Counted from the stretch's first letter, positions 3,007 through 60,107 are shown. The stretch is DNA of 64,000 nucleotides from Minisyncoccota bacterium (GCA_041674225.1 JBAYWG010000001.1:390273-454272); one strand, 5' to 3'. A program made the numbers and translations. Notes: generated by a model from the letters alone, not told the origin.

Positions 3007-3077
3007 GCGGGTATAGTTTAGTGGTAAAATGAGTCCTTGCCAAGGATTAGACGGGAGTTCGATTCTCCCTACCCGCA
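3007..3077 (+). tRNA. tRNA-Gly (anticodon GCC), no encoded CCA
   Basis: Acceptor GCGGGTA/TACCCGC, anticodon loop TTGCCAA, T-arm GGGAG-TTCGATT-CTCCC. Confidence 0.8.
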
Positions 3078-3304
3078 CAAATAAGGGTTTTCTGGGGATA
3101 ACTATGGGGATATGTGTATAAAAGACATCATTTTTGTCTAATAAACAAGTTTGTGTTTTAAAATAGTGTTATTTATAGCCAAATAAAATTGTCTAATAGA
3201 CTTATATGTTTCACGTGAAACACTTTAGATCATGTGAATATCTTCATAATTCCTTGAGTTTTTCTTTAATACCGTTTCACATGTAACCATTTATGATGTA
3301 AAAC

Positions 3305-7615: not shown

Positions 7616-7689
7616 GCGGGTATAGTTTAATGGTAGAATGACTGCCTTCCAAGCAGTAGATGGGAGTTCGATTCCCCCTACCCGCACCA
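7616..7689 (+). tRNA. tRNA-Gly (anticodon TCC) with genomically encoded CCA
   Basis: Acceptor GCGGGTA/TACCCGC, anticodon stem ACTGC/GCAGT with loop CTTCCAA, T-arm GGGAG-TTCGATT-CCCCC, then A-CCA. Confidence 0.85.
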
Positions 7690-7714
7690 AATTAAAAGTG
7701 TTATCTTTATAGAT

Positions 7715-8467
7715 ATGTTCGAAAAATTCTTAGAAGAATTGGGTCTAAGTGATAAAGAGTCAAAAGTTTATTTAGCATTGTTGGAAGTTGAAAATGATTC
7801 TGTAATCGATTTATCTAAAAAAACAGATATTAACAGAACAACAATTTATCCAGTTTTGGAATCTCTTTCTAAAAAAGGTTTGATTAGTGAAATTAAGGTT
7901 GATAAAAAAGTTCGTTATGCCGCTGAATCTCCTGAGAGATTAGAAACTTATGTTGAAAGAAGAAAAATTCAATTAGAGGAGCAAGAAAGAAAGTTGAAAG
8001 ATATTATTCCGCAGTTGAAGAGTGTGCAGCGGGATAAAGGAGAAAAACCAATCATAAAGTTTTATGATGGTAAGGAAGGAATAATGTCAGCTATAAAAGA
8101 ATATTTTGGACCAAATCCGAAAGGTGGCGATGCTTATTTTTTATATGATTATGATTTAGTTAATGAAATTTTTACCCCACAAGAGATTAAAACTGCCCAA
8201 AATAATAGAAGCCAAGCGAAGATAAATGCATTTTCTTTTTATGCGAGTAAAAACGAGTCACTATCAAACAGTGAGTCATCATCAAGAATTCAAGTTGATG
8301 GTGATAAATATCCAATCTATTGTGATATTGGAGTATATGATGATTATGTAAGAATTCACACTTTAAATAAAAAAGTTTCTGCTATATATATAAAAAACAA
8401 GGATATCGCCGAAACTTTTAAGTCTTTATTTAGAATCGCTTTCGATAATTACAAAAGTAACAAGTAG
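7715..8467 (+). CDS. TrmB-family winged-helix transcriptional regulator
   Basis: N-terminal LSDKESKVYLALLE...TIYPVLESLSKKGLI wHTH typical of the TrmB family. Confidence 0.65.
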   Translation: MFEKFLEELGLSDKESKVYLALLEVENDSVIDLSKKTDINRTTIYPVLESLSKKGLISEIKVDKKVRYAAESPERLETYVERRKIQLEEQERKLKDIIPQLKSVQRDKGEKPIIKFYDGKEGIMSAIKEYFGPNPKGGDAYFLYDYDLVNEIFTPQEIKTAQNNRSQAKINAFSFYASKNESLSNSESSSRIQVDGDKYPIYCDIGVYDDYVRIHTLNKKVSAIYIKNKDIAETFKSLFRIAFDNYKSNK

Positions 8468-8518: not shown

Positions 8519-8959
8519 AAAATTGGACTTATTTAGATATCTCTAAAAATTTGTCCAGAAAACATTTTCAATTTTTAATCTCCAAAGTCGCCCATAATGA
8601 ACTCCTTTCTGTTTTGAAATTTGGTGAACGACCAATTAGTGCTGAATCAACACCCCCACCCGAAACCCTATGCAAGGCTCGGGTGGGGGCGCATCATCTG
8701 CGTGTCTTAGCCGTGCATAGGTCACCTCCTTTCAGTTGAACTATCTGATTGAAATCCTGGTCTAGAAAGACAAGGCAATCAGATTTCTAAGATAGTATAG
8801 CAAATTTTAGATAAATGTCAATACATATAAACAGTTTTGTCTTATATTTCTTTTAAAACACGGCTTATTTATGGTTTTTTTGTTAAAAATGTTTATTTTG
8901 ATTAAATAATTTTCATTGACTTTTAAGTAAAAACGTGATAATATAAGAGAAGAAATTAA

Positions 8960-9062
8960 GTAGCCATAGCCACAAGAGCCTTAATATTAAGACCCTTCTG
9001 GCTATGGCTACCGAGTGGTATATCCGAGCTACACGTCAGTCCATCGTGAAAAACAGGACTCG
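8960..9062 (+). ncRNA. Structured leader element X (copy A): 13-bp hairpin plus conserved GAGUGGUA...GUGAAAAACAGGACUCG tail
   Basis: GTAGCCATAGCCA...TGGCTATGGCTAC perfect hairpin. A paralogous copy at 17794-17895 carries a compensatory C:G to A:U change. Confidence 0.5.
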
Positions 9063-9094
9063 TTCGGCTATCGACAAGAGCCACCAAGTACATT

Positions 9095-9439
9095 ATGAAG
9101 ACATATTTTTCGAACGATTCGAACCCCTCAGTCACTGTTTACTACTGTATCCCTGAGACAGTATTCGAAATAAATTTATTTGGATGTTTCTATATCGCAG
9201 TGGTAAAAAAACCAGAAGGGTTCATATTCTGGTGGGAAAATCCAGACCTGAGTCATCTTGGCCCTGACGATGAACTCCTCGAGGAACACAATCCTAGTGA
9301 ATGTGTTGAGCTTCCTGATGAATTCCTAAGGAAGCTTGAGGAAAAGCTGCGAAATGTTGACCATGTGGACAACCTTTTGTGGGATTCATCTTCGGAACAA
9401 TGGAAAAGCCTTCCGTCTGTTTTGCAGTTTGAAGATTAA
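9095..9439 (+). CDS. Hypothetical acidic protein (114 aa)
   Basis: ORF immediately downstream of element X. Start context AGTACATTATGAA is shared with the next ORF. Confidence 0.4.
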   Translation: MKTYFSNDSNPSVTVYYCIPETVFEINLFGCFYIAVVKKPEGFIFWWENPDLSHLGPDDELLEEHNPSECVELPDEFLRKLEEKLRNVDHVDNLLWDSSSEQWKSLPSVLQFED

Positions 9440-9620
9440 TAGTGGTACTCCACTCGGTTCATAGATTAATACCGTAAAATCTACTTGGAGAACTTCGGTT
9501 CTCCTCTCAACTGAGCTTGCAACAATTTGATAGTTGTAAGTTCACAGAGAGTAAAACGTTCAGACACTCGTTATAAAACAGTCTGTGCAAGTCAAAGCAG
9601 CAATTGACACCTAGTACATT

Positions 9621-10130
9621 ATGAAACCAATTATTGCCTTCTATGAAATGCTCTGCGATCTTATTGAGACCGGAGTGAAAGGAGCTGGTACCGGCAGCTA
9701 TCCTGCAAGGAAGATGGAAATTGATCTTATTAGCTTGTCTGGTAAGGCTCGTGCTTCCAAAAACCCTGTTAGCTGGGTTGGTGCTGACAATGCAAACATC
9801 CTTTCCATGATGTTGCGTTGTATCAACGACAACGAAAACTCAAGCGGCAGACAGTGGGAACTCAGTGTTGAAACTCTGATGATCTCTGCATTCGGAGATC
9901 TGTCCGCCGTTCGTGATACAGAAGCGCTTCAAACTTTCGGACGGTTGAGAAGGGTGTGCTTCATGGACAAGAAAGAACTCTTTCTCTGGAGTCGTAAGAA
10001 AACTGAGAGAGAAGACGGAAGTGCTGTCATTGTGCTGCACGTCAGTGATCTACGAGCTTTTCAGTCTCTGATTCACGTCAGTGGCTCGAAAGGAAACCTC
10101 GAAGATGGTTTGATGATCATCAAGCCTTAA
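9621..10130 (+). CDS. Hypothetical protein (169 aa)
   Basis: ORF downstream of element Y. Protein-like composition. Confidence 0.45.
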   Translation: MKPIIAFYEMLCDLIETGVKGAGTGSYPARKMEIDLISLSGKARASKNPVSWVGADNANILSMMLRCINDNENSSGRQWELSVETLMISAFGDLSAVRDTEALQTFGRLRRVCFMDKKELFLWSRKKTEREDGSAVIVLHVSDLRAFQSLIHVSGSKGNLEDGLMIIKP

Positions 10131-10210
10131 TTGGAAACGCTAAAGGAGAACAGCGTACAACTCCGGCTCTGCATACACTTGCAGAGTCTTTTTATTTTAA
10201 GATATTTAAA

Positions 10211-10241
10211 TAAAAAATAGCCCCTTTTGCAAAGGGCTATT
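10211..10241 (-). terminator. Rho-independent terminator (bidirectional hairpin)
   Basis: TAGCCC-TTTTGCAAA-GGGCTA hairpin flanked by an A-run on the + strand, which is a T-run on the - strand. Confidence 0.55.
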
Positions 10242-10253
10242 AAGTTTAACTTT

Positions 10254-11414
10254 TCAGTTAATCAACCAACTTAACGCCGGTTTCTTGTGGAATATTCTTT
10301 CTGCGATTACCGCATTAGTATATTCTTTGTCTTCGGTGACTTCTTGAATTATCTCTATCCAGTCTGGAATTTGCAATTCATGCTCCAGATTGGTTAGTTC
10401 TATTTCAAGCATCCCAATCTCAACACTCGGATCAGTACTTGTATTGGAGTTTTTGAAGACATCCAGTTCCAAATATTGATTTGCCCAAAGCATACAGTGT
10501 CGAGTTTTGTTTACCGGACATGTGTCTGGTTTAATCATTGAAGACATGAGCTCGAACTCACTTTCTCCGATGATTCTCTCAACTTCGAGTCTTTGGCCTG
10601 GGCCGTGATCGCGTTTTTCAGTCATGAAGTAGGTGTAGAAACCATCGTGACCGCGTTTGCGAATACGGATTTCCGCCTTATCACTTCCTGTTGTTAGATA
10701 AATCTGCTCGATGTCGATTGAGACAGCTTCCTTGGGAATGTTCATTGGATTGAACTTTACTAAGAATTTTCTTTCTCTTTCGACAGGAATCGGCACCCCA
10801 ATAACTGCACAAACTTCTTGATAAACTCGGTGGAGTTTTTCTTGAAAATCGGTACTGTTGTCGACGACTCTCATGTGAGGATGACCAACCCAGGCTTGCT
10901 GAGTTCTCTTATCAAGATCTCTCGCTTGTTGGGGAGTCTCGTGTCTCGCTGAATTGTTTGCCAGAGTGTAGAAATCCTCAGCACCTTCTGCGGCTGTGAC
11001 CATGTGAATGACTGCGTCATATCTCGCATGACTAGCACTCACTGGATTGAGTTCTCTTGTTTGCAGCAGAGACAAGTAGTCTTCTTTTTCCATGTATGCA
11101 CTCCCGTCGGGAATACCACGGTCGTAGATGACTACAATCTTTTGATCTGCTGGAAGATTTTTTGCAATCTCCAAAATGTTATTTTCGATGCTCAAACTTA
11201 TGTTGAGAATCGCATTTTGAAGCATGTCTCCCGAGATTGAATTTTTGCCTGGCATTACTCCAGCGTTGATACATAGGGTCGCCATCTCTGGGATGACAAA
11301 AACCACATGATTTTCAATCTCTTCAATTTTCTCTCTCAAGAAAGAGAGGCCACTAGACTTTCCTCCGCAAGGGCCACCGGTCAGGACTATTCGGTATATG
11401 TTTTTGGGTTGCAT
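10254..11414 (-). CDS. P-loop AAA-type ATPase fused to a C-terminal CYTH (triphosphate tunnel) domain
   Basis: Walker A TGGPCGGKSS at the N-terminus. The C-terminal half starts ERERKFLV and has the alternating acidic/basic strands of CYTH. Confidence 0.65.
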   Translation of the reverse strand: MQPKNIYRIVLTGGPCGGKSSGLSFLREKIEEIENHVVFVIPEMATLCINAGVMPGKNSISGDMLQNAILNISLSIENNILEIAKNLPADQKIVVIYDRGIPDGSAYMEKEDYLSLLQTRELNPVSASHARYDAVIHMVTAAEGAEDFYTLANNSARHETPQQARDLDKRTQQAWVGHPHMRVVDNSTDFQEKLHRVYQEVCAVIGVPIPVERERKFLVKFNPMNIPKEAVSIDIEQIYLTTGSDKAEIRIRKRGHDGFYTYFMTEKRDHGPGQRLEVERIIGESEFELMSSMIKPDTCPVNKTRHCMLWANQYLELDVFKNSNTSTDPSVEIGMLEIELTNLEHELQIPDWIEIIQEVTEDKEYTNAVIAERIFHKKPALSWLIN

Positions 11415-12348: not shown

Positions 12349-13086
12349 TTGTTAATTATGAAAAATAAAATACTTGAGCAGATTGGTTTATCAAAGAATG
12401 AGAGTGAGATTTATTTAGCACTTTTAGATTTAGGACCTTCAAGTATTTCAAAAATCTCTGAGAAAACCGCCATCCACCGACCACTTATTTATAAAGCACT
12501 ACCTGAACTTTTGGAGAAAAAATTGGTTAGCCAAACTCAGAAAGGGAAAAATGTGCTTTATGTGGCGGAACCACCAAATAGATTAGAATCAATTTTTGAT
12601 GAATTAAAATATCAATTCTTTGAACTTTTACCTGATCTAGAAGACTCATACTCAAGCAACAATAAAAAACCGAAAATTAGATTTTTGGAAGGGAAGGATG
12701 GAACTAAAAGAGTTTTTGATGATGTTGTGAGAAGTTTGAATAAAGGAGATACTTTTTATAGATACACTTCAAACAAAGATGGAAAAGAGAAAAAAGATCG
12801 ATATGTTCCGAGAATTTATTGGACTATGCGTGACGCTAAAAAATTGGAGAGGCAAGTGATCACAAACGAGAAGACTGCAAAAGCAAAAATAGAAAAAATT
12901 GATAGATTTGTGAAAGGAATGCCAGAAGATTTTGGACCTTTTGAACACAACATTACAGAAATTATTTATGGAGACAGAGTTTCTTTTATAGACTACAACT
13001 CAGACACCGCGATGATTATTGAAAGCAAACCGATTGCTGAGTTTCAAAAACATATCTTCAAGACATTTTATAAGAAGTTAAGTTAA
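12349..13086 (+). CDS. TrmB-family transcriptional regulator (paralog of 7715-8467)
   Basis: LSKNESEIYLALLDLGPSSISKIS...LIYKALPELLEKKLV wHTH. Similar length and architecture to the first TrmB-like gene. Confidence 0.6.
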   Translation: MLIMKNKILEQIGLSKNESEIYLALLDLGPSSISKISEKTAIHRPLIYKALPELLEKKLVSQTQKGKNVLYVAEPPNRLESIFDELKYQFFELLPDLEDSYSSNNKKPKIRFLEGKDGTKRVFDDVVRSLNKGDTFYRYTSNKDGKEKKDRYVPRIYWTMRDAKKLERQVITNEKTAKAKIEKIDRFVKGMPEDFGPFEHNITEIIYGDRVSFIDYNSDTAMIIESKPIAEFQKHIFKTFYKKLS

Positions 13087-14436
13087 TTACTCGTGCCACC
13101 TTCGTTCTGCTCGAATTGGTGCATCTGCAACTAGTTTTATGCGAAGGTCTGAAGGAAGAAAATCAAGGGTGAATGATCTTCCTTCGATTACAATCTTGCT
13201 TTCAGAAGTGTCTCGGATTTTTGATATTTCCCTAGCTGAAAATTCTATAACTTCTTTCTGATATTTTTTTGCGATGTCAGGGATTTTATTTTCAACCCTG
13301 CTTTCTCGGAGTGCTTGTCCGTAAACTTTTTTGATATCTAGATTCGTGTGAAAGAGTCTTAATTCTCCTGATGTGCTCTTGTAGTACATGTTTTTGAAGA
13401 TATTTTTTGTGAATTTTATTTTTGCTAGGTTTAGTAAAGTGAGGTATCTGAAAATGTCTCCCATTGAGAAGATTTTTGCGTTTAGTTTTTTTGCCAATTC
13501 TTTTGTGGTTGAGCTTTTTCCGACTCCACTTTTTCCTTCTAGAGAAATTATTTTGGTCTCCTTTTTTATGTCAGTCTCGATTATTTTGATAACATTTTTT
13601 ATTCCAATTACTTTTCCTGTATCTACTGTGATTGTTTTCTTAGGTTTTTGTATTCTCAATCCTTTGTTTGAAAGATTTTCTTTATTTACTTTATCTATCT
13701 GATCATCTCTGTGATCTCTTTCAATTATTGAATGTAGTATTTCACTTACCCCATGTGATTTTATTCTATGAGTTATTTTCTCTTTTCCTATTTCTGAGAC
13801 CACGCAATCTTTTATTATTGTATTCAGTTCAGCTGTTTTAAATTCCGAGAAGTATTTGTCACCAAAATCTCCGAGACCAGGAACTATATAACCTTTTTCG
13901 TCTAAACATTTATCTAGTTGTCCGATTATTATTTTAACTTTTGGATAAAGAGTTAAGATTTTATTTACTCCCTCTGGTGAGGCTAAGATGTTTGCTACGA
14001 CTATTTTTTCTTCTGCGACATTTTTCTTTAAACATCTTTCGATTGCGTCGATAATAGTGTTTCCAGTTGCTAACATGGGATCAACTATGATGACAAAGTT
14101 GTTTTTGTTTATTTTTCCCTCTTCAAAATCAACCTCTGTTTCTAGTGTTTCCTCGTTTCGCTTTGAGCTTAGGTGGTAATAATTTTTTATTTTAAATTTC
14201 TTTAGGCTCGGGATAAAAGCGAGTGCAGATCTCCAGGGAAGAATAACGACCGTGTTATTTTTTTCTATATGATTTAAAGATTCTTTAATTATTTTGTCTG
14301 TAATTATTTCAGAATTTTCTCTAAAGATTTTTCCTTTGGTTTGTTCATGAAAAGATTTGTTGGGATATCCGGCTCTTAAAATTTTAAATGCGGTGTTGAA
14401 TTTTTTATCTGGAGTTACTATTTTTATTTTCTTCAT
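13087..14436 (-). CDS. Uracil phosphoribosyltransferase fused to cytidylate kinase
   Basis: N-terminal half has DPMLATGNT and YIVPGLGDFGDKYF (UPRT). C-terminal half has P-loop ISLEGKSGVGKSS and cmk-like sequence. Confidence 0.75.
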   Translation of the reverse strand: MKKIKIVTPDKKFNTAFKILRAGYPNKSFHEQTKGKIFRENSEIITDKIIKESLNHIEKNNTVVILPWRSALAFIPSLKKFKIKNYYHLSSKRNEETLETEVDFEEGKINKNNFVIIVDPMLATGNTIIDAIERCLKKNVAEEKIVVANILASPEGVNKILTLYPKVKIIIGQLDKCLDEKGYIVPGLGDFGDKYFSEFKTAELNTIIKDCVVSEIGKEKITHRIKSHGVSEILHSIIERDHRDDQIDKVNKENLSNKGLRIQKPKKTITVDTGKVIGIKNVIKIIETDIKKETKIISLEGKSGVGKSSTTKELAKKLNAKIFSMGDIFRYLTLLNLAKIKFTKNIFKNMYYKSTSGELRLFHTNLDIKKVYGQALRESRVENKIPDIAKKYQKEVIEFSAREISKIRDTSESKIVIEGRSFTLDFLPSDLRIKLVADAPIRAERRWHE

Positions 14437-14460
14437 TTAATTTTATTATAGTTTATTTTT

Positions 14461-14512
14461 TCCGTTTCGTCCTTTTGGACTCATCAGGCAAAGAACTTAC
14501 CTTGCGACAGTG
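14461..14512 (-). ncRNA. Hammerhead ribozyme, type III (HHR-1)
   Basis: Minus-strand read: CACUGUC|GCAAGG-UAAGUU-CUUUGC (stem I) CUGAUGAG UCC-AAAA-GGA (stem II) CGAAAC GGA. Full catalytic core, GUC cleavage triplet. Confidence 0.8.
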
Positions 14513-14581
14513 GACGGATGGAACGTGCATCCGTCAATTTGTTTCAGTTTCAGGAAGTTTTTTCTCCCTAGTGCGCCTCGA

Positions 14582-14962
14582 TTAGCCGTGGCCGATGACC
14601 GGGACGCGACCGATCTCCTCTCTCTCCTCTTGGGCTCGTTGCCTTTCGCGGGCTTCTTCGTGGCCGAAAGAGCGGAGATAACTTTCGTCATGCTCTCGCT
14701 GCTCTTGCTCGTAGGATGCCCGAAGCGGTGTTCGGATCAAGGATGAGAGTTCGTCTCTGACCTCTTTGGGCCATGATTTCCTGATCCGCAGGAGGTCGCC
14801 GATGAATCTCTCAGCGTCATTGATATCGAGGTGTCCTCGCATCATTCGGCAGAGGTCTTCGGAGGTGTTTGGGTGTTGTCTGTTGGTCGGCATGGGTCGT
14901 TTGGGGCGTGGAGTTGGTGGGGACTGTTTCGTCTTGCTTCTACACTTGTAGAAGAGACTCAT
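14582..14962 (-). CDS. Hypothetical small charged protein between two hammerhead ribozymes (coding status uncertain)
   Basis: 126-aa ORF. Its 5' end overlaps HHR-2, so the true start is probably an internal Met. Confidence 0.3.
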   Translation of the reverse strand: MSLFYKCRSKTKQSPPTPRPKRPMPTNRQHPNTSEDLCRMMRGHLDINDAERFIGDLLRIRKSWPKEVRDELSSLIRTPLRASYEQEQREHDESYLRSFGHEEARERQRAQEEREEIGRVPVIGHG

Positions 14963-14990
14963 CAGGCGAGATACTTATCTCGCGACAGAA
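14921..14990 (-). ncRNA. Hammerhead ribozyme, type III (HHR-2)
   Basis: Minus-strand read: UUCUGUC|GCGAGAU-AAGU-AUCUCGC CUGAUGAG UCU-CUUCUAC-AAGU-GUAGAAG-CA-AGA CGAAAC AGUCC. Stem III is CUG/CAG. Confidence 0.8.
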
Positions 14991-15036
14991 GACGGATGGA
15001 ACGTTCATCCGTCAATTTGGTTCAGTTTCAGGAAGT

Positions 15037-15360
15037 TTATTCTTCCTCTGCGCCGGTGCGAATGTACCCTCTTCGCTCGAGTTCCTTCAGGCAGATATGC
15101 ATTTCCCTCGGACTACCTGCTTGAAACAGGACTCGCATTTGTTTGCGGGTTAGTCGGGCAGGGTTTGCTAGATTTGCTTCCGCTCTTTTCATTAGGCGAT
15201 TGAAGGCTTTCTCGCAAGCTGGCGGTGCGTGGCGGTCTTTGGCCTTTGGTGGTTCGGTTTGCTCGCGCATCTTGGCTTTTTGTGCGGAGATTATGCCGTT
15301 GTAGCGTGGTACGCAGGTGCAGGATGTGGTCATGGGTAGTTTGGGGTTTGGGGTTAACAA
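15037..15360 (-). CDS. Hypothetical small protein, possible HTH at C-terminus (coding status uncertain)
   Basis: 107-aa ORF upstream of HHR-2 on the minus strand. Confidence 0.3.
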   Translation of the reverse strand: MLTPNPKLPMTTSCTCVPRYNGIISAQKAKMREQTEPPKAKDRHAPPACEKAFNRLMKRAEANLANPARLTRKQMRVLFQAGSPREMHICLKELERRGYIRTGAEEE

Positions 15361-15747
15361 AGAACAAATTTATTTTTTTGTAAATTGTAAGGTCTAATCC
15401 AACATATTTATAGTCTAGTCAAATTGAGTCAATTGTTTTTATCAGAAGTGGTATTTTTATGTGCAGGGGGTTCAGGCAATATTATAAGTAAAGTATTTGA
15501 AAATATTTTTTATTTATGGTCAATGTGTACAGAGATGGGAGCGAGGTGAATTTAGTGGCTTTAAATATAGCTATTATTTGATTTTTCAGTGTAATTTTTA
15601 GTTTCAAAAAAACTTTTTTATACAACTTTTTTAAAAAAGTAGCAAAAAAATATAAATTCTGTCTAAAATTTGAAACATTATAAAAATGTAAATATGGCTT
15701 AAAATATGATAAAAAATGATATCTAAAATTAGAAACGACAAAAACGC

Positions 15748-15776
15748 TTGACAAAAAATGAAAATGGGTATATACT
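15748..15776 (+). promoter_or_regulatory. Consensus sigma70-type promoter (TTGACA-17 nt-TATACT)
   Basis: Perfect -35 TTGACA at 15748-15753, 17-nt spacer, -10 TATACT at 15771-15776, in an AT-rich region with upstream direct repeats. Confidence 0.6.
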
Positions 15777-15837
15777 ACTTTCAAACCTAAAACAAGCACA
15801 CAACATTCAACAACCAGCCAATAGAAAGGAGGAGGGC

Positions 15838-15888
15838 ATGATTTACCAAATCTACCCCGATGGGACCATTGTGGTCGTCCGCCGATAG
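15838..15888 (+). CDS. Candidate 16-aa leader peptide (MIYQIYPDGTIVVVRR)
   Basis: ATG 5 nt downstream of the strong SD AAGGAGGAGGG, about 55 nt from the predicted TSS. Stop TAG. Confidence 0.3.
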   Translation: MIYQIYPDGTIVVVRR

Positions 15889-16342
15889 GCCGGAATAGTG
15901 GGTTCGTTCAAACCGAATCTGCTCCCTTAAAATAAGATCTTCCACACGGTCTTATTTTAAGGTAGCGGAAGTTACCTAGTTCTTTAAAAGATAAAAGATA
16001 GCCTGCACCTTAATCAGAGTATTGCTAGTACTTTGATTAAGGCGCAGGACATTAACAGTTGTTTGGCGGCCTAAAAATAGGGAAACAAAGTTTCCCCTTT
16101 CGGCTGATCACCGATTGAACTACCCAGGAGGTTTGTGTCATGTTTGAACACGAGCAAGAAAGGTGGAGGAAGATGTTCACAATTTAAAGAACATCTGGAA
16201 GGTTGGTAACCGTAAACTGTTGTGGTGCATGTAAGGGTGCCACGATTGTCCTTTGGACAATCAAAAGTCAATGCCTAATCAATATTAGGTACACACGTCT
16301 ACACGAAGTGATGGAATGCTTAACCAGCTCCATGCACTTCGT

Positions 16343-16396
16343 CCTGTCGCGAGATGCATGTCTCGCCTGATGAGTCCAAAAGGACGAAACAGTTGC
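16343..16396 (+). ncRNA. Hammerhead ribozyme, type III (HHR-3)
   Basis: CCUGUC|GCGAGA-UGCAUG-UCUCGC CUGAUGAG UCC-AAAA-GGA CGAAAC AGUUGC. Shares stem I with HHR-2 and stem II with HHR-1. Confidence 0.85.
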
Positions 16397-16524
16397 ATTT
16401 TTAAAATATAAAATCTTTGTACTGCATTCCGTGTTCAATTCTTTTGGAAGATAAACACCACTCAATTTAATGTGGCCCCCAAAATTGGACACAGTGCTCG
16501 GTATAAAGATTTATACCAACAGTT

Positions 16525-16540
16525 CTTTAAATAAAAATAA
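16525..16540 (+). repeat. 16-nt direct repeat CTTTAAATAAAAATAA (copy 1 of 3)
   Basis: Exact 16-mer, also present at 17307 and 17776. Confidence 0.7.
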
Positions 16541-17252
16541 TCATTTTCTTGGAACTCCGCAGTCACAAAATTGAAACTAAAATTTGGTTTTAATTTTGTG
16601 GCTGTGGAGGGCCCGATAGACTCGCAAGAGTTGATAGGATAGTTGCCAAAAGACAATTACTATCCGGGTGTGTAAAAACATCTAAATCTCCATCTTGAAA
16701 CTAGTGTGCTCCGGGAGGGGTATCCAAACATTAGTGTAGAGAGCTGTAGAAGTCTGCAAACTTCGAAAGCAGTTAGAAGCGTTCAGGGCTGCAACCCAAA
16801 AACGTGGAAAGCCAAGTGTGCATCAGGCACGGCTCGCAAGGCTGTGTGCAGTGCACCCCTCTTTCTTGGCATGTCTTACAACTATATAAAGTTGCTAACG
16901 GCATAAAGAGGGAAATCAATCATCGTAGGGCTGTGCCACAATACCAGAGAATTGGGAAAACTCTGGGTGAAAAGTGGAAGAGGAACGCCACCTCAAATGG
17001 AAAAAGCCCCGGCCAGGGAAATATCCAAGAAGATGATTGAGGATAAAGGGTGCGCACACACCCTAAAACAATTCGGTGAGATTCCGAAATGTGTGGTCAA
17101 AAGACAGCTACCGTTAGCAGCGGTGGTCGGCTCGCAAGAGTATTGCTGTCATTGAGAGTATGTGAGCTTCGGCTTCTGACCTTTGTACTCTCTCCCAAAT
17201 TTTTCGGTTCGGAACTAGGTTCAACCGGGTTGTAAGTTATCCAAAAACTTTC

Positions 17253-17302
17253 TCTGTCTCGAAATGTAATTTCGACTGATGAGCTCAAAAGAGCGAAACA
17301 GA
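17253..17302 (+). ncRNA. Hammerhead ribozyme, type III (HHR-4)
   Basis: UCUGUC|UCGAAAU-GUA-AUUUCGA CUGAUGAG CUC-AAAA-GAG CGAAAC AGA. Stem III is UCUG/CAGA. Confidence 0.85.
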
Positions 17303-17306
17303 TGAT

Positions 17307-17322
17307 CTTTAAATAAAAATAA
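17307..17322 (+). repeat. 16-nt direct repeat CTTTAAATAAAAATAA (copy 2 of 3)
   Basis: Exact copy, immediately 3' of HHR-4. Confidence 0.7.
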
Positions 17323-17775
17323 ATTCTCTGCACCGAATTGCATTTAAGTTTTTTAAATTCAGTTCGGTGCAGGGAGTTGTTGCGACCCCATAGTACGTGA
17401 GTCAAAGAGGGATAAATGATACCCTCGCGAAAAGATCAGCTGCAACATGCTAAAAGAGCTTAGGAATTTATGCTCGATCGAAAAATTTCCAATCATATGA
17501 CCAAGGTCGAAAGACGCTGTTACATCTCCCAGAAGAGATGGTGCGACGAGGCAATCTAGAACGCCTTTTCAATCGCATTACCTAATGCCCTTCAACCGGC
17601 GGTTTATATTACTCGAGATTAGATCTCTTGCGGATATAGATTGGTTAACAAACGACAGGTTAGGTATCTCGTGTTGAATCGGGACATCATCGCAACAATT
17701 TTTCGCACTTTTTCAAAAAAAGTGCACTTCATTGAGCTTACGAAATTTGATATTCGCAAGTTCATAGAGTTTGTA

Positions 17776-17791
17776 CTTTAAATAAAAATAA
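17776..17791 (+). repeat. 16-nt direct repeat CTTTAAATAAAAATAA (copy 3 of 3)
   Basis: Exact copy, immediately 5' of element X copy B. Confidence 0.7.
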
Positions 17792-17793
17792 AA

Positions 17794-17895
17794 GTAGACA
17801 TAGCCAAAGGAATTTTTAAATAGAATTTCTTTGGCTATGTCTACTGAGTGGTAGATGAGCTGCACATTGGTCCGTTTGTGAAAAACAAGGACTCG
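17794..17895 (+). ncRNA. Structured leader element X (copy B)
   Basis: GTAGACATAGCCA...TGGCTATGTCTAC hairpin plus UGAGUGGUAGAU...GUGAAAAACAAGGACUCG. Paralog of 8960-9062. Confidence 0.5.
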
Positions 17896-17924
17896 TCTGA
17901 CGAACGTATCGTCACCCCAGACTT

Positions 17925-18245
17925 ATGAGCAAGCACCACTATCGTAAACCTGCTGCTAAACCTGTGTGTCCTTGCGGACATGCTACGACCGATGCTCTCT
18001 GGGTGTTAGACATCCAAGGAGACCGACCTATCAGGGTTCATCGGCCATGCGGTCAGGCGATCTTGAAGAACGCGCCGAAAGGAACGCAGGGCAAAATTCG
18101 TCCTTCCCGCGAGCTCAAAGAGATTCACAAGAAGCAGAGGTACGAGCGCGAGCTCTCCTCCAGTTTCTGGAACTCCAAGCTTGAAGGTGTCAAAGGCAAG
18201 TCTTTACAAGACTTGGTGAAGACCGCTCCCGACAGGCAGTCCTGA
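17925..18245 (+). CDS. Hypothetical basic Cys-containing protein (106 aa)
   Basis: ORF directly after element X. CPCGH...PCGQ suggests a small zinc-binding fold. Confidence 0.4.
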   Translation: MSKHHYRKPAAKPVCPCGHATTDALWVLDIQGDRPIRVHRPCGQAILKNAPKGTQGKIRPSRELKEIHKKQRYERELSSSFWNSKLEGVKGKSLQDLVKTAPDRQS

Positions 18246-18381
18246 TGGATTGGTTGAAACAAGTTTCTCTAGCTCTTTTCCTTTCAAAAAAGAGTCGCAC
18301 TGTCAGCGGATAATAATCAACCCCGCTAGACTAAGAGTTTGCAGATTTCTTAAATCTGCACTTACTTGAGCTTGCAACAAG

Positions 18382-18780
18382 ATGTTGTTGGTTCATAGAG
18401 TGTTAGTTCTTTCAAAAACAAAACAAAAAAATATGATCATCTCAAATGCATTTTCACTCAACATGTTTGAAACCCTCGAAGGAGAAATTCTCAGCAGAGA
18501 GCTTAGTGTCACGGAAATCTCGAAAGAGCAGGCTGTTGAACTTTTAACAGACCCTGAGCTTGGAGGAGTAGATTCAGCTGTTGGACATGCCGACACTGCT
18601 GCGCTTTTTTCTACGATTCTCGGAATCGAGATCCCGTGTGAGCGCAAGACGATTCAACTCAACCCTGAAAATGGTTGGCTTATTGTCGGGCAGTATCATG
18701 GACCACGTCTTGAAGAAGGAAGTACTACACTTCCGGAGGGTGCCAGTATTCGCTGGTACGAAATCGAGATTAAGTCTTGA
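18382..18780 (+). CDS. Hypothetical protein (132 aa; may start at internal Met 18439)
   Basis: ORF downstream of element Y copy B. Confidence 0.45.
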   Translation: MLLVHRVLVLSKTKQKNMIISNAFSLNMFETLEGEILSRELSVTEISKEQAVELLTDPELGGVDSAVGHADTAALFSTILGIEIPCERKTIQLNPENGWLIVGQYHGPRLEEGSTTLPEGASIRWYEIEIKS

Positions 18781-18789
18781 GAGATTATT

Positions 18790-19077
18790 ATGAATTTGGA
18801 AGAAATTTCAAAGCTCTATGATGATCCTCAAGATGCAATGAGGATTTTACAAACATCTGTTGAAGGAAAACACAGATATTTCCGAAACGAGAAAGCTTTC
18901 GAAAGGTTTCTGAGAAAAGAACAAGACTCATATCAGCGTCGCAAGACTGCTGGTGTTTCAAGTCCGGTTTCACTTCTTGAGAATACTCTCGACTCTTCTC
19001 CTTTAAGGAACGAAACTTTGCCCCCGGGCAGTAATGGTTTCAATGTGATTATCTGGCAGGAAACTTCCAAAGGATAA
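18790..19077 (+). CDS. Hypothetical protein (95 aa)
   Basis: ORF tightly following the previous one (10-nt gap), followed by a terminator. Confidence 0.45.
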   Translation: MNLEEISKLYDDPQDAMRILQTSVEGKHRYFRNEKAFERFLRKEQDSYQRRKTAGVSSPVSLLENTLDSSPLRNETLPPGSNGFNVIIWQETSKG

Positions 19078-19085
19078 TCATTGAA

Positions 19086-19112
19086 CCCTGCAATAAAATG
19101 TAGGGTTTTTTC
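19086..19112 (+). terminator. Rho-independent terminator
   Basis: CCCUGCA-AUAAAA-UGUAGGG hairpin followed by a T6-7 run, 9 nt after the ORF stop. Confidence 0.55.
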
Positions 19113-19127
19113 TTTAAATTTATACAA

Positions 19128-19158
19128 AGCAAAAAGCCGGCGGAGCCGGCTTTTTGCT
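19128..19158. terminator. Bidirectional Rho-independent terminator
   Basis: GCAAAAAGCCGGC-GGA-GCCGGCTTTTTGC, a perfect hairpin with A/T runs on both sides. It lies downstream of hup on the minus strand. Confidence 0.7.
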
Positions 19159-19229
19159 TATTTACTTAAAATTCTGTGAAGATAAATTTAATAACTTAAA
19201 ATTTAACCGTTTTGAACTTGTACGTATAT

Positions 19230-19502
19230 TTATTTAACAGCTTCTTTCAAAGCTTTTGCAGCTCTAAACTTTGGAGTTTTCATAGCTGGAACTTTGATAG
19301 CTTCACCTGTTCTTGGGTTTCTAGCTGTTCGGGCTGCTCGTGTTTTAGCTTCAAAAATACCGAATCCTGCAACTGAAACTTCTTCTCCAGATGTTAAAGA
19401 TTTGATAATTGAATCAAAAACAGCGTCAACAACCTTTTCTGCTTCTACCTTTGTTGTACCTAATACTTCATGTACCTTTTCTACAATGGCTGCTTTATTC
19501 AT
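19230..19502 (-). CDS. hup: DNA-binding protein HU
   Basis: 90 aa. MNKAAIVEKV...GFGIFEAKTRAARTARNPRTGEAIKVPA matches the HU/IHF fold signature. Confidence 0.9.
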   Translation of the reverse strand: MNKAAIVEKVHEVLGTTKVEAEKVVDAVFDSIIKSLTSGEEVSVAGFGIFEAKTRAARTARNPRTGEAIKVPAMKTPKFRAAKALKEAVK

Positions 19503-38773: not shown

Positions 38774-38778
38774 ACGAT

Positions 38779-38964
38779 ATGAAAAAATTTCAACAAGTAA
38801 AATTATTAGTGTTAGTGGTTTTATTATTAGTATCGCCGATTTTATGGATAGTTTTGGGGAATATTCCGGTAGATTTTAACGACACTCAATCTTGGATTTA
38901 TTTAATTACTTTTGCAGTTTTGGCACTTGCTGTGTTTTTTGCTTTAGACTCGAATAAAAAGTAG
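38779..38964 (+). CDS. Small two-TM membrane protein
   Basis: 61 aa, hydrophobic. Confidence 0.35.
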   Translation: MKKFQQVKLLVLVVLLLVSPILWIVLGNIPVDFNDTQSWIYLITFAVLALAVFFALDSNKK

Positions 38965-39015
38965 TTTTATTGTGGATATGGTGGAAATTATTTTAAAATA
39001 ATCCGTGTTACAATT

Positions 39016-53175: not shown

Positions 53176-53176
53176 T

Positions 53177-53974: not shown

Positions 53975-54027
53975 GACTAAATTGTAGCATTTATTTAATT
54001 AATTTAAGGTTTTTTATAAACAATATT

Positions 54028-60051: not shown

Positions 60052-60107
60052 TATCTGTTAAGATATTCAGTACAACTTTAAAAGTAATTAATATTTAGTT
60101 TATTTAT

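Follow-up and report, generated by a model that had tools for sequence, protein, structure and literature searches.

A compositionally foreign locus between upp-cmk and hup of a Paceibacterota bacterium as a probable pair of ribozyme-bounded cassette arrays

Overview

A 4.7-kb segment between upp-cmk and hup of a Paceibacterota (CPR) bacterium is probably a hypervariable accessory locus, in which two divergent arrays of promoterless cassettes are bounded by self-cleaving RNAs (Table 1). Within the window (the whole stretch of 64,000 nucleotides that was analysed), the segment combines a foreign base composition with promoters, terminators, structured RNAs and ribozymes that covary and are placed between units. 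The locus is long-standing and fast-changing, rather than a fresh mobile-element insertion.

Table 1. Features of the segment, in window coordinates
Feature	Position	Strand	Details
Compositionally atypical segment	14450-19160		4.7 kb, between upp-cmk and hup
HHR-1, type III hammerhead	14459-14513	-	Rfam RF00008 35.0 bits, E 4e-5; full core
HHR-1 predicted cleavage	between 14506 and 14505	-	
3' boundary element	14514-14581	-	AACUUCCUGAAACUGAAAC, then hairpin GACGGAUG..CAUCCGUC; part of repeat D1
m103, cargo ORF	14582-14893	-	103 aa, orphan, GC 0.56; start ATG 14893
HHR-2, type III hammerhead	14921-14991	-	Extended stem II; Rfam 35.2 bits, E 3.6e-5
HHR-2 predicted cleavage	between 14984 and 14983	-	
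m98, cargo ORF	15037-15333	-	98 aa, orphan, GC 0.53; start ATG 15333
AT-rich spacer	15366-15790	.	GC 0.24; divergent promoters
Leftward promoter	-35 15514-15509; -10 15491-15486	-	TTGACC, TCAAAT; read from sequence
Rightward promoter	15748-15776	+	TTGACA-17-TATACT; 11/12 matches; conserved in L006
Short ORF	15838-15888	+	16 aa, MIYQIYPDGTIVVVRR; strong Shine-Dalgarno AAAGGAGG in front
ncRNA-1 (tentative)	15977-16340	+	GTTCTTTAAAAG leader, 20-bp hairpin 16002-16048, structured body; inverted repeats I9, I10
HHR-3, type III hammerhead	16341-16395	+	Rfam 40.4 bits, E 1.2e-6
HHR-3 predicted cleavage	between 16348 and 16349	+	
Conserved spacer	16396-16521	+	L006 match, E 2.4e-18
Large ornate RNA	16522-17250	+	~700 nt; covarying structure
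HHR-4, type III hammerhead	17251-17304	+	Rfam 43.7 bits, E 1.4e-7
HHR-4 predicted cleavage	between 17258 and 17259	+	
ncRNA-2	17305-17699	+	A-rich leader, 26-bp hairpin 17322-17378, body closed by helix GUUGCGA/UCGCAAC
Two-hairpin motif, copy 1	17700-17789	+	GCACUnAnUUGAGC-hairpin-GYUCAUAGAGU; model R1 78.8 bits
orf106 5' leader RNA	17773-17924	+	A-rich leader, 22-bp hairpin 17793-17845
orf106	17925-18245	+	106 aa; Zn-ribbon-like CPCG...PCG core, then long helix
Two-hairpin motif, copy 2	18334-18423	+	5' UTR of DUF1874 gene; model R1 84.3 bits
DUF1874 / AcrIII-1-Crn2 family ring-nuclease homolog	18433-18780	+	115 aa; PF08960 38.9 bits, cutoff 26
orf95	18790-19077	+	95 aa, orphan; gene in public annotations
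Intrinsic terminators	19083-19108, 19127-19159	+	Inverted repeat I17

Four hammerheads positioned between units

All four type III hammerheads have a complete core, with Rfam E-values of 1e-7 to 8e-5 and scores of 35-44 bits, which lie under the Rfam gathering threshold of 48.5. An independent descriptor search of the 64 kb returned exactly these four, and reversed-sequence controls returned 0. Across 19 compact hammerheads from these arrays, CUGAUGAG and CGAAA were invariant and compensatory changes were present in 13 of the 16 pairs, spread over all three stems. These ribozymes are real and under selection. Each is on the strand of its own cassette and between units, with a 3' hairpin directly 5' of the cleavage site and an A/C-rich leader directly 3' of the ribozyme, a placement that fits a role in transcript processing.

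The terminal ribozyme of the leftward array (HHR-1) ends 23 nt upstream of the upp-cmk start codon (14436). It is conserved in three lineages and keeps its place beside upp-cmk in both L005 and L006, with covariation in stem I and a cleavage triplet of GUC, GUU or GUA (nucleotide limited to the allowed C, U and A). HHR-2 is retained entire in L005 (1-67) and L006 (1534-1604), homology stopping directly after CGAAACAG; HHR-3 is conserved in L006 (188-242), and the termini of contig L238 are identical to HHR-4.

The 3-bp stem III could instead favour dimeric cleavage or ligation. Under a retrozyme- or viroid-like reading, units would be excised and circularised (e.g., by RtcB), and a functional or mobile circular RNA would spread via an RNA intermediate. 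Same-strand type III hammerheads with this short stem do flank units of 478 nt (-) and 910 nt (+), all stem III are interchangeable (CUG/CAG) such that ligation into a circle would restore a hammerhead, the ends of L238 (a 1527-nt contig found in four samples) share 26 nt of the same hammerhead, and circular products were considered by Perreault et al. 2011 (PMC3088659). We nevertheless regard this reading as quite doubtful: no reverse transcriptase is nearby, the direct repeats are just 92 nt and much shorter than long terminal repeats, the 26-nt overlap differs from the k-1 that circularity would produce in a de Bruijn contig, L238 is accounted for just as well by an assembly that breaks where ribozymes repeat (cf. 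L002, L005, L239), and circles were not detected in the arrays of Perreault et al. (PMC3088659).

Composition and coding content

GC content is 0.430 in the segment vs 0.353 in the remaining window, peaking at 0.52-0.55 across 14500-15250 and holding at 0.40-0.48 across 15750-19000, with the 425-nt AT-rich spacer (GC 0.238) interrupting the GC-rich sequence. Third codon positions of segment ORFs have a GC of 0.34-0.63 vs 0.15-0.28 in upp-cmk, HU, RNase Y, TrmB and NUDIX, and tetranucleotide deviation reaches z=3.8 at 17-19 kb (z=2.3 at 16-18 kb). A second tetranucleotide-atypical region was observed at 9-11 kb (z=3.6).

Public gene calls are absent between 14437 and 18381, where we argue that three additional ORFs are genuine genes. 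If so, about one third of the segment is coding and two thirds non-coding, which agrees with the lack of codon-like periodicity over most of the segment described in the initial annotation. That annotation had also proposed a GC-skew and k-mer scan of what it took for foreign DNA, and GC, tetranucleotides and third codon positions all deviate, in line with that view. Its three small ORFs are present as well, one being a PF08960/DUF1874 member. The cargo as a whole is accessory, consisting of orphan ORFs plus one member of the virus-typical AcrIII-1/DUF1874 family.

Sharp GC steps, repeated elements and a metagenome-derived assembly would also suit a chimera, with GC-rich foreign reads mis-joined into a low-GC metagenome-assembled genome. 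This is extremely improbable, since identical junctions occur in an independent ENA assembly (100% across 9.5 kb) and in Logan contigs of another run (L002, L239), and a homologous hammerhead-to-upp-cmk junction is found in diverged relatives from other samples (L005, L006-L008).

The leftward array in the upp-cmk leader

Both leftward cargo ORFs follow a common leader, read from the sequence (CCCCAAACGACCC before m103, CCCCAAACUACCC before m98); the m103 start was moved from 14962 to ATG 14893. The longer form of the m103 ORF has GC1/2/3 of 0.59/0.45/0.63. A 90%-identical 103-aa representative of m103 exists elsewhere, and no Pfam or PHROG match was found for this protein.

The segment contains two copies of a 92-nt repeat (D1) and three of a CTTTAAATAAAAATAA-plus-hairpin element. 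Searches with nhmmer located further copies of the 3' boundary element at 15053-14992 of the window (overlapping the 3' end of m98), L006 1476-1534, and L003 10580-10625 and 5525-5567, each directly upstream of a ribozyme; L238 1427-1480 is an additional copy.

The stretch holding the leftward promoter is retained in L009, immediately in front of upp-cmk (73% identity over 126 nt, E 4e-14, a significance inflated by the AT-rich sequence). It lies 90-210 nt from upp-cmk in L009 vs ~1.05-1.17 kb in the window, where two cassettes stand between. The leftward array thus appears to sit within the upp-cmk 5' leader and transcription unit. Transcription from this conserved promoter (~15514-15486) would yield an RNA carrying the foreign, GC-rich m98 and m103 cassettes followed by upp-cmk, with each cassette terminated by the conserved 3' element, its hairpin and a type III hammerhead. 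In vivo cleavage at the predicted sites, which we infer, would turn the boundary element into a terminal hairpin at the 3' end of the RNA upstream, so that each mRNA would be freed with its 3' end protected by a hairpin and bearing a 2',3'-cyclic phosphate. The next unit, and lastly upp-cmk, would receive a constant ribozyme-capped 5'-OH leader, which would insulate upp-cmk from any upstream insertion; the processed ends may thus both insulate and stabilise.

The rightward array of structured RNAs and proteins

The short ORF behind the rightward promoter has a counterpart at the same place in L006 (MIYRIHPDGTIEVIRRP), with synonymous changes between the two. We tentatively treat the sequence that follows as an RNA unit, ncRNA-1: its homology to L003 3877-3990 is weak (nhmmer E 8e-4), it contains no conserved ORF, and a different sequence takes its place in L006. 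The spacer after HHR-3 aligns with the site that a twister ribozyme occupies in L003; the twister model (R3) gave nothing in the window at E<=1.

In the large ornate RNA, an A-rich leader (16522-16540) is followed by a 25-bp hairpin (16555-16609) and then by a multi-domain body that contains GNRA loops. L003 4351-5031 matches this RNA at 76% identity, L134 6202-6820 is a divergent homolog (E 5.6e-19), and Rfam gave no match. Its structure comprises 177 pairs, 61 with double changes; 91.4% of cells are paired vs 41-47% with slid partners, the observed values were reached by 0 of 500 shuffles, and the fold-energy z-score is -6.65. ncRNA-2 lacks an ORF and is 71% identical to L238 1-483; the structure predicted for it from two sequences contains 73 pairs, including 7 compensatory ones. 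The orf106 leader is homologous to a leader at 8950-9095 of the window (nhmmer E 6e-11) and to L005 6352-6467.

Homologs of orf106 occur in L238 (63% identity) and in L134 (7565-7843; 30% identity, E 2.5e-8), in the latter immediately 5' of DUF1874, and the ORF is a conserved partner of the DUF1874 gene. Its AF2 model (pLDDT 75.9) gave no fold match at E<0.1. The DUF1874 protein also matches phrog_5063 and, in the PDB, AFV3-109 and STIV B116, in alignments that include the catalytic G-H motif; the motif His is invariant in 37 homologs. The family functions as an anti-CRISPR-type ring nuclease (AcrIII-1/Crn2; bioRxiv 10.1101/778746). The second terminator is bidirectional and shared with hup.

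The two-hairpin motif alignment contains 22 pairs, 8 compensatory. Copy 2 is also kept upstream of DUF1874 in L003 and L004, and copy 1 sits in the slot taken by ribozymes elsewhere. The rightward transcript would start at the strong sigma-70 promoter and run through the short ORF, ncRNA-1, a hammerhead, the ~700-nt RNA, the second hammerhead, ncRNA-2, the motif, orf106, the motif again, the AcrIII-1/Crn2-type gene and orf95 to the two terminators. The hammerheads, probably assisted by the motif as a putative processing element, would cut this precursor into discrete RNAs and mRNAs. In these respects the RNA-centric character given to the segment by the initial annotation was borne out: its ribozymes were recovered by both searches, its ornate RNA is supported at 16522-17250 by covariation and fold energy, its repeat-flanked modules correspond to the repeats described above, and tandem terminators do end the segment.

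Alternatively, the cassettes could be integron-like DNA units, with hammerhead-plus-hairpin elements and the two-hairpin "DUF1874 motif" folding in single-stranded DNA as attC-like sites and ribozyme activity being secondary. Weinberg et al. 2017 (PMC5737381) raised this idea for that motif, which recurs in consecutive intergenic regions, and the arrays are promoter-proximal, with promoterless cassettes, variable cargo and swap breakpoints at structured elements. This is improbable, however, as no tyrosine recombinase is found in or near the arrays of the window, L003, L005, L006 and L114, and no GTTRRRY-type core site was seen by eye at the boundaries; an invariant catalytic core with covarying stems is what is expected of an RNA enzyme, and an attC hairpin needs neither the CUGAUGAG...GAAA core nor a non-G cleavage nucleotide.

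Cargo turnover in relatives

The comparison of relatives covers three lineages plus short Logan contigs that break at ribozyme repeats, and concerns the upp-cmk side of the locus. Hammerhead-bounded units lie directly upstream of upp-cmk both in L005 (upp-cmk 96% aa identity) and in L006-L008 (73%), with the same terminal ribozyme as the window and different cargo. Between the same two hammerheads, the ORF encodes 103 aa in the window, 185 aa in L005 and 131 aa in L006, and the three are mutually unrelated. From CUGAUGAG onward, identity between the window and L005 is 99%, whereas stem I and cargo differ; L006 shares the rightward promoter, short ORF and hammerhead. These alignments show cargo replaced among relatives, with breakpoints at the ribozymes. 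In a second array of the window (8918-10130), an ORF-precise swap vs L005 was observed.

The layout recurs in L003, where the + strand carries all of the 4-6 hammerheads and 3 twisters, and where ncRNA-1, the big RNA and DUF1874 are found again; in L114, six hammerheads flank DUF1874, AAA, MoxR and VWA genes. The order big RNA, hammerhead, orf106, DUF1874 is repeated in a Saccharibacteria genome, and L134, with a genome of ~55% GC, carries this module as well. This conserved gene order argues for a dedicated system and against a random cassette array. Cargo probably derives from higher-GC donors and is exchanged by homologous recombination, a mechanism we infer to act inside the conserved ribozyme cores and leaders.

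The initial annotation had proposed that a single discrete element, mobile or derived from a phage or satellite, had integrated between upp-cmk and hup. The foreign, RNA-centric and accessory nature of the cargo stands, and a discrete element would also account for the absence of the island in the more distant relative L009, for a DUF1874/AcrIII-1 family typical of viruses and mobile elements (in at least 80 IMG/VR contigs), and for the exact hammerhead variant in 34 viral contigs. Discrete recent integration is nonetheless unlikely. The suggested duplication at the borders was not found, their longest common word being 8 nt, which is equalled by 73% of shuffles. No integrase, transposase, reverse transcriptase or phage gene occurs in the island or within 10 kb, no replication or structural gene in the island or nearby, and no match to annotated phages or plasmids was obtained. 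The IMG/VR contigs have only the ~50-nt hammerhead in common with the island, and none of 80 viral DUF1874 loci contains the big RNA, the two-hairpin motif or a match to the twister model. Furthermore, the upp-cmk transcription unit includes the left part of the island, and the site is occupied by other cargo in the relatives of 96% and 73% identity. A segment syntenic in relatives and compositionally like its flanks had been named as evidence against integration; synteny of the site is conserved but its composition and content are not host-like, so that only half of this pattern is present.

Comparison with known hammerhead arrays

Clustered bacterial hammerheads were already known and process polycistronic RNA in vitro (PMC3088659). 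What the present locus adds is the occurrence of clustered hammerheads in CPR bacteria, their RNA cargo, their position in a host-gene leader and the turnover of their cassettes, together with a ~700-nt structured RNA absent from Rfam.

Composition and borders of the island

The window comes from a metagenome-assembled genome of a Candidatus Paceibacterota (CPR) bacterium with housekeeping genes of about 35% GC. The GC content of the island (14450-19160) was 0.430 versus 0.353 for the rest of the window (0.52-0.55 at 14500-15250; 0.40-0.48 at 15750-19000; 0.24 in an AT-rich spacer inside it), and both GC3 (0.34-0.63 in island ORFs versus 0.15-0.28 in host genes) and tetranucleotide deviation (z up to 3.8) agreed with this difference. 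The initial annotation had described a compositionally foreign 4.7-kb island that contains ribozymes and ends in tandem terminators; since the composition, four type III hammerheads with complete cores and two real terminator consensus matches were all confirmed, that description was accurate. Public gene calls contained nothing at 14437-18381, and Rfam at curated (gathering) thresholds gave no match in the island, where the hammerheads surfaced only in a permissive E-value search. Elsewhere in the window, mild tetranucleotide outliers (z 2.0-2.4) were seen at 37001-39000, 43001-45000, 52001-54000 and 60001-62000, and a three-copy protein-like repeat at 43647-45568.

The foreign composition had also been taken as consistent with an integrated mobile element or a phage- or satellite-derived cassette, an interpretation that the borders and gene content did not bear out. 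The longest direct word common to the two border regions (14380-14560 and 19040-19260) was 8 nt, a length reached by 73% of shuffles. No recombinase, transposase, reverse transcriptase, or phage structural or replication gene was found by Pfam and PHROG scans of the island ORFs and their neighbours or in precomputed Pfam annotation within 10 kb on either side, and blastn at distant sensitivity returned 0 matches in 50,697 phage and 72,556 plasmid records. In IMG/VR, 34 viral contigs carried the same hammerhead variant, the ribozyme being the only feature in common with the island; 64 matches of a 17-mer of the 3' element to viral contigs came without any further similarity and were treated as chance. 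With no border repeat, no recombinase, reverse transcriptase or phage gene and no phage or plasmid match, the island is therefore not a recognisable discrete element.

Relatives were collected by protein homolog search and context look-ups (a single-protein upp-cmk scan of genome contigs gave none) and were short contigs that break at ribozyme repeats. The site was occupied, not empty, in L005 (96% identical UPRTase-CMK protein; flanks about 90% identical to the window at the nucleotide level) and in L006-L008 (73%; flanks 75-85%). Hammerheads lie at the same site in all of these loci, and the cargo between them differs. L009 (66% identical upp-cmk) had no island, yet its neighbouring genes differ too, so it is not a clean empty site. 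An exact HU protein look-up returned only the same contig, and the comparison of borders with relatives thus covers the left (upp-cmk) side. The island is a resident, variable locus. Of the rivals to the processing model described below, namely a discrete mobile element, an integron-like DNA system, a system of RNA circles and an assembly chimera joining unrelated sequence at this site, only the chimera was excluded outright; L001 and L012 carry the same locus in an independent assembly.

Organization of the two arrays

Features of the island and its neighbouring genes, in window coordinates
Feature	Position	Strand	Remark
upp-cmk	13087-14436	-	UPRTase-cytidylate kinase fusion gene; left neighbour of island
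Promoter-like TTGACC-17-TCAAAT	15514-15486	-	leftward array, first in order toward upp-cmk
A/C-rich leader, then ORF m98	15333-15037	-	leftward array, second
3' element (AACUUCCUGAAACUGAAC), hairpin, HHR-2	HHR-2 14991-14921	-	leftward array, third
Leader, then ORF m103	14893-14582	-	leftward array, fourth
Second copy of 3' element, hairpin, HHR-1	HHR-1 14513-14459	-	leftward array, fifth
Near-consensus promoter TTGACA-17-TATACT	starts 15748	+	first of rightward half (15748-19159)
16-codon ORF after strong Shine-Dalgarno	rightward array	+	kept in L006 with synonymous changes
Hairpins and ncRNA-1	between 16-codon ORF and HHR-3	+
HHR-3, then conserved spacer	HHR-3 16341-16395	+
~700-nt RNA	16522-17250	+
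HHR-4	17251-17304	+
ncRNA-2	17305-17699	+
Two-hairpin motif, copy 1	17700-17789	+
Hairpin leader and orf106	between motif copies	+
Two-hairpin motif, copy 2	18334-18423	+
DUF1874 gene, then orf95	DUF1874 18433-18780	+
Two terminators	19083-19159	+	end of rightward array
hup	19230-19502	-	right neighbour of island

Units of the rightward array open with GTTCTTT and an A-rich leader, often followed by a 20-27-bp hairpin. In the leftward array, the 3' element and the ribozyme lie in a 92-nt direct repeat, and the 64-kb window has none larger; 23 nt separate HHR-1 from the start codon of upp-cmk. Both m98 and m103 are preceded by a CCCCAAAC[G/U]ACCC-AUG leader. The ORFs originally listed here, m126 and m107, were rejected in favour of starts at the ATGs after this common leader; the m103 start was moved because the ATG of the longer m126 lies inside the CUGAUGAG core box of HHR-2. 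An exhaustive HMMER search found a 103-aa protein 90% identical to m103, which backs the reassigned start.

The conserved stretch that holds this promoter is found 90-210 nt ahead of upp-cmk in L009 versus about 1.05-1.17 kb ahead of it in the window, where two cassettes intervene; the homology with L009 is one of AT-rich DNA. From this difference in distance, the two cassettes sit inside the leader of the housekeeping gene.

Pfam and PHROG scans of cargo other than DUF1874 gave no match. The AF2 model of orf106 was adequate (pLDDT 76) and had no fold match in the PDB or BFVD. In the rightward array, ncRNA-1 may, tentatively, be a structured RNA unit. A 'decayed twister' at 16440-16520, suggested by alignment with L003, was rejected after the twister model found nothing there at E<=1.

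Hammerhead ribozymes at the unit boundaries

All four island hammerheads contain CUGANGA, GAAA and a U-H cleavage dinucleotide, and an independent descriptor search found exactly these four in 64 kb and 0 in reversed-sequence controls. Their RF00008 scores of 35.0-43.7 bits (E 1e-7 to 8e-5) are under the 48.5-bit gathering threshold because stem III has only 3 bp and the loops are compact; core defects are not the cause. We aligned 19 compact array hammerheads (from the window, L003, L005, L006, L114, L118, L119, L130, L133, L134 and L157). The CUGAUGAG box and CGAAA were invariant, stem III was open and stems I and II looped, and 13 of the 16 pairs had compensatory changes, with all three stems represented. 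The cleavage nucleotide was C, U or A and never G. At the hammerhead adjoining upp-cmk, three lineages had different stems I (GCAAGG/CUUUGC, GCAAGA/UCUUGC or GACAAG/CUUGUC) and different cleavage triplets (GUC, GUU and GUA), all of them permitted. Judged by this covariation, the array ribozymes are under selection, and self-cleavage is predicted.

Two further hammerhead-like sites were seen in L003 (3812-3866 and 5110-5175), one with CCGAUGAG, in which C replaces U4, and one whose stem II has an A-C mismatch at its base; these may be inactive or variant ribozymes.

Cargo turnover between conserved boundaries

The ORF between the two leftward hammerheads is m103 in the window, an unrelated 185-aa ORF in L005 and an unrelated 131-aa ORF in L006. 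The window and L005 are 99% identical from the CUGAUGAG box of HHR-1 into upp-cmk; 6 of the 18 stem I positions differ, and the sequence upstream of stem I is wholly different. On the HHR-2 side, homology stops right after CGAAACAG. In the rightward array, L006 and the window have the promoter, short ORF, HHR-3 and spacer in common, and the intervening sequence differs; in L238, a different 114-aa ORF replaces DUF1874 after orf106. The locus is thus a promoter-proximal array of promoterless cassettes whose cargo varies between conserved boundaries in three lineages. Since one pair of ribozymes brackets three different cargos in nature, the units act in a modular way.

A larger array of this family is present in L003, with 4-6 hammerheads and three twister-P1 ribozymes that all lie on the + strand, ncRNA-1-like and big-RNA units, the two-hairpin motif and a DUF1874 gene 69% identical to that of the window. 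Just after this DUF1874 gene, an 84-nt element (7076-7159) gave a 76.5-bit match to Rfam tmRNA that spans the ends of the model, with a tRNA-like domain (GGGGGUGA...UCCACCA) and a hairpin replacing the middle; ARAGORN reported no gene on it. In L134, from a genome of about 55% GC, big RNA, hammerhead, orf106 homolog and DUF1874 follow one another in unchanged order. A genome of this type would be the kind of donor that explains the 53-56% GC of m98, m103 and orf106.

In another Patescibacteria locus (L114 7483-16028), six same-strand hammerheads flank DUF1874, AAA_22, MoxR (bpMoxR) and VWA genes. The AAA_22 protein had a weak Csx3-like match, and the cargo is of conflict-system type. Two of these hammerheads lie inside long listed ORFs, which suggests that those ORFs are over-called.

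A second, smaller array of the same family was seen at 8918-10245 of the window, where 9-11 kb is a tetranucleotide outlier (z = 3.6). It opens with a promoter (TTGACT-17-TAATAT, 8918-8946) and a leader of about 145 nt with a hairpin (8950-9095), homologous to the orf106 leader, followed by a small ORF (9200-9439), a motif copy (9480-9569), a 160-aa ORF (9648-10130) and, near 10220, a hairpin that resembles a terminator. In L005 an unrelated 187-aa ORF takes the place of the first ORF, and the breakpoints coincide more or less with the start and stop codons. The adjoining AAA_28 gene (10254-11414) has GC 0.43 and GC3 0.43, well above host genes, and may itself be accessory cargo; a shorter AAA_28 homolog borders the L003 array. 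Two tRNA genes (3007-3081 and 7616-7690) are 85% identical to each other, the second lying directly upstream of TrmB2 and the small array.

A large structured RNA and ncRNA-2

The RNA between HHR-3 and HHR-4 is 76% identical to L003 4351-5031, and a more distant homolog lies in L134 (6202-6820, E 5.6e-19), which is from Saccharibacteria. The consensus fold of the three sequences has 177 pairs, 61 of them changed on both sides. In this fold 91.4% of cells were paired versus 41-47% with the partners slid by 1-3 columns, and 0 of 500 shuffles reached the observed values. A coding reading was rejected: a frame of 46-52 codons is kept between the window and L003, but most of its substitutions are non-synonymous and they coincide with compensatory pairs, so the constraint on the large RNA is RNA structure. 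Against Rfam 15, no family reached its gathering score, and at E<=10 only chance-level microRNA and sRNA fragments overlapped the region. Searched with a core-domain model, 49 genomic and 80 viral DUF1874 loci yielded only these three copies; a 32-mer and a degenerate pattern had 0 matches in IMG/VR viral contigs, and a 22-mer gave only a chance match in metagenome contigs, inside a histidine-kinase gene. The large RNA is genuine, and Rfam has no family for it. As a large, strongly covarying RNA common to Paceibacterota and Saccharibacteria it is a new RNA class, in a gene order beside an anti-CRISPR-type ring nuclease that recurs. The neighbouring ncRNA-2 is kept in L238 and has 7 compensatory pairs (two sequences).

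The two-hairpin motif

An alignment of four copies of the motif (two from the window, one each from L003 and L004) had 22 pairs, 8 of them compensatory. The model built for it found a third window copy, that of the small array, with its L005 homolog, as well as copies in five other Patescibacteria loci and 0 of 80 viral loci; all three window copies lie upstream of an ORF. The slot it occupies immediately precedes the A-rich leader of the following ORF, and in other units hammerheads or twisters fill this slot. The 'DUF1874 motif' recurs in consecutive intergenic regions and has been tentatively likened to attC (Weinberg et al. 2017, PMC5737381). Like that motif, the one described here is multistem, has a highly conserved internal loop and occurs in 5' UTRs, including that of the DUF1874 gene, and in successive intergenic regions, a likeness by description only, with no Rfam match at E<=10. 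Unlike the attC-like DNA role proposed there, alternation with hammerheads in one structural slot suggests, by analogy, that the two-hairpin motif may have a role in RNA processing.

The DUF1874 ring-nuclease homolog and its neighbourhood

DUF1874 is the AcrIII-1/Crn2 family of ring nucleases that degrade cyclic tetra-adenylate, with His47 of SIRV1 gp29 as the catalytic histidine (Athukoralage et al., bioRxiv 10.1101/778746). The window protein scored 38.9 bits against PF08960 (cutoff 26) and has PDB relatives in AFV3-109 and STIV B116; its SAVGHADTA segment aligns with the G-H of the solved homologs, and the H was invariant in 37 homologs. It thus belongs to the AcrIII-1/Crn2 family and keeps the catalytic His, and cA4 cleavage is predicted. 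Like AcrIII-1/Crn2, it is a small PF08960 protein in an accessory, foreign-looking context; unlike them, it has neither a type III CRISPR locus nor a phage context nearby. No CRISPR array was found in the 64 kb, and genes within 10 kb of the island are housekeeping, so that the type III CRISPR adjacency used as the criterion for Crn2 was not seen.

In Patescibacteria the DUF1874 gene is often itself a hammerhead-bounded cassette beside a TrmB-like gene. Of 46 species-representative genomic DUF1874 loci, 9 had hammerheads, at 15 sites that for the most part adjoin the gene and belong to Patescibacteria; of 80 viral loci, only 2 had any. The Firmicute Faecalibacillus (L156 7890-7956) has a twister immediately upstream of DUF1874 and an Oscillospiraceae genome (L138 2518-2578) a hammerhead immediately downstream, which extends the link between DUF1874 and ribozymes outside Patescibacteria/CPR.

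A TrmB-like gene was present within 8 kb upstream in 8/8 genomic loci with a hammerhead beside DUF1874, versus 8/38 other genomic and 0/80 viral loci (Fisher p = 5e-5). Over all genomic loci the count is 16 of 46. Since these genomes often contain TrmB paralogs, the association is no more than suggestive. TrmB-family genes were seen to adjoin every array examined (window 7715-8467 and 12349-13086; L003 2126-2884; L114 5264-6028; L134 4799-5551). The L003 gene is closest to TrmB2 of the window, and the large L003 array thus fills the TrmB/array/AAA_28 position of the window's small array, which suggests that the module may have moved between array sites.

Proposed processing and exchange of ribozyme-bounded units

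The best-supported reading of these sequences is that the ribozymes would cut each of two polycistronic transcripts into separate RNAs whose ends are standard. The upstream product of each cut would end in a hairpin a few nt before the cleavage site, and on the downstream product the folded ribozyme would come first and an unstructured A/C-rich leader next. Under such processing, unrelated ribozyme classes and a further motif would be interchangeable in one slot, cargo of any kind, protein-coding or RNA, would be accommodated, and a hammerhead would be retained directly before upp-cmk. The conserved cores would offer 25-60 nt of identity at every boundary, which fits the observed breakpoints and suggests that cassettes may be exchanged by homologous recombination within them. 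We infer that the ribozymes cleave in vivo and that their products are stable, and we likewise infer the mechanism of recombination. If true, processing and exchange together would explain why unrelated ribozyme classes and a non-catalytic motif share a slot.

A joint reading goes further: the ribozyme-matured ~700-nt RNA (perhaps with ncRNA-1 and ncRNA-2), the Zn-ribbon-like orf106 and the ring nuclease would, under a TrmB-family regulator, form an undescribed RNA-protein system of Patescibacteria, with ribozyme-bounded units as the mobile quanta of the arrays, perhaps via excised, possibly circular RNA. We consider this improbable; if true, bacteria would have their own equivalent of retrozymes, and the system would be a RiboJ-like cassette platform that arose in nature.

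Comparison with known systems

Hundreds of bacterial self-cleaving ribozymes were found between 2011 and 2015, and their role has since been an open question. Clustered hammerheads were described flanking variable genes in prophage-like regions, with the polycistronic RNA cut in vitro (Perreault et al. 2011, PMC3088659). Ribozyme-rich neighbourhoods led to twister-sister, pistol and hatchet (Weinberg et al. 2015, as cited in PMC4604425 and PMC6765202), and bacterial ribozymes are known to cluster together and with phage-type genes; their roles are still called 'largely elusive' in reviews (PMC6765202). Given those hammerhead clusters and the association with phage-type genes, this kind of system is already known. 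As in the clusters of Perreault et al. and Weinberg et al., same-strand hammerheads (with twisters in relatives) flank single genes or short blocks of variable identity, processing of a polycistronic RNA is proposed, and anti-defence-type genes are among the cargo. Unlike those clusters, the window has a CPR host, no prophage or integrase context or similarity to phage records, large structured RNA cargo, an array in the 5' leader of a housekeeping gene, and relatives whose comparison points to cargo being replaced at one and the same chromosomal site, the breakpoints lying in the ribozyme.

Our literature search found no paper linking CPR, Patescibacteria or Saccharibacteria with these ribozymes. 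What is new here is the CPR host, a new host group for ribozyme arrays; ribozyme-bounded large structured RNAs, including an unrecorded class of about 700 nt; the array in a housekeeping leader; direct comparative evidence for cassette replacement with ribozyme breakpoints; and a recurring TrmB/orf106/ring-nuclease neighbourhood. Hammerheads that delimit exchangeable expression units would be a concrete case of a role for bacterial ribozymes.

The large RNA is like GOLLD, ROOL, OLE and HEARO in being multi-domain (about 650-700 nt), with GNRA loops, strong covariation and an accessory-element context. Unlike them, it is flanked by predicted self-cleaving ribozymes, lies outside all Rfam 15 families and has so far been seen in three Patescibacteria loci only.

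An integron-like DNA system, in which a recombinase would shuffle cassettes at DNA sites, is a rival that matches the single promoter, promoterless cassettes, highly variable cargo and structured boundaries. Unlike integrons, the window has boundaries that, by inspection, are hammerheads, hairpins and GTTCTTT-type leaders with no attC consensus (GTTRRRY core); these boundaries are predicted catalytic RNAs, and exchange resembles homologous recombination in ribozyme cores. No IntI tyrosine recombinase was found in the window, L003, L005, L006 or L114.

A further rival, a system of RNA circles like those of retrozymes or viroid-like RNAs, shares short-stem-III type III hammerheads bracketing units of 0.5-1.5 kb; same-strand hammerheads of the island are spaced 478 nt (- strand) and 910 nt (+ strand) apart. 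Unlike retrozymes, which have LTRs of about 300-400 bp with a hammerhead and reverse transcriptase in trans, the 64 kb contain no direct repeat longer than 92 nt and no reverse transcriptase was seen. The units are also chromosomal and bacterial, with ORFs and bacterial-type leaders, and only the ambiguous 26-nt overlap of L238 bears on circularity. This 1.5-kb contig (1-1527), identical in four samples, starts and ends within one hammerhead sequence, its last 26 nt repeating its first exactly. It represents either a small circle or one unit bounded by two identical ribozymes.

Synthetic insulators of the RiboJ type, attributed to Lou et al. from 2012, reportedly use a hammerhead and hairpin/leader to standardise the 5' end of the downstream cistron and free its expression from upstream context. 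Compared with these, the window arrangement is natural and would also give the upstream product a 3' hairpin, and insulation would follow by analogy. The hammerhead conserved 23 nt before upp-cmk would uncouple this housekeeping gene from the foreign cassettes in its leader, and the processing and exchange model, if true, would provide natural parts for insulating synthetic operons.
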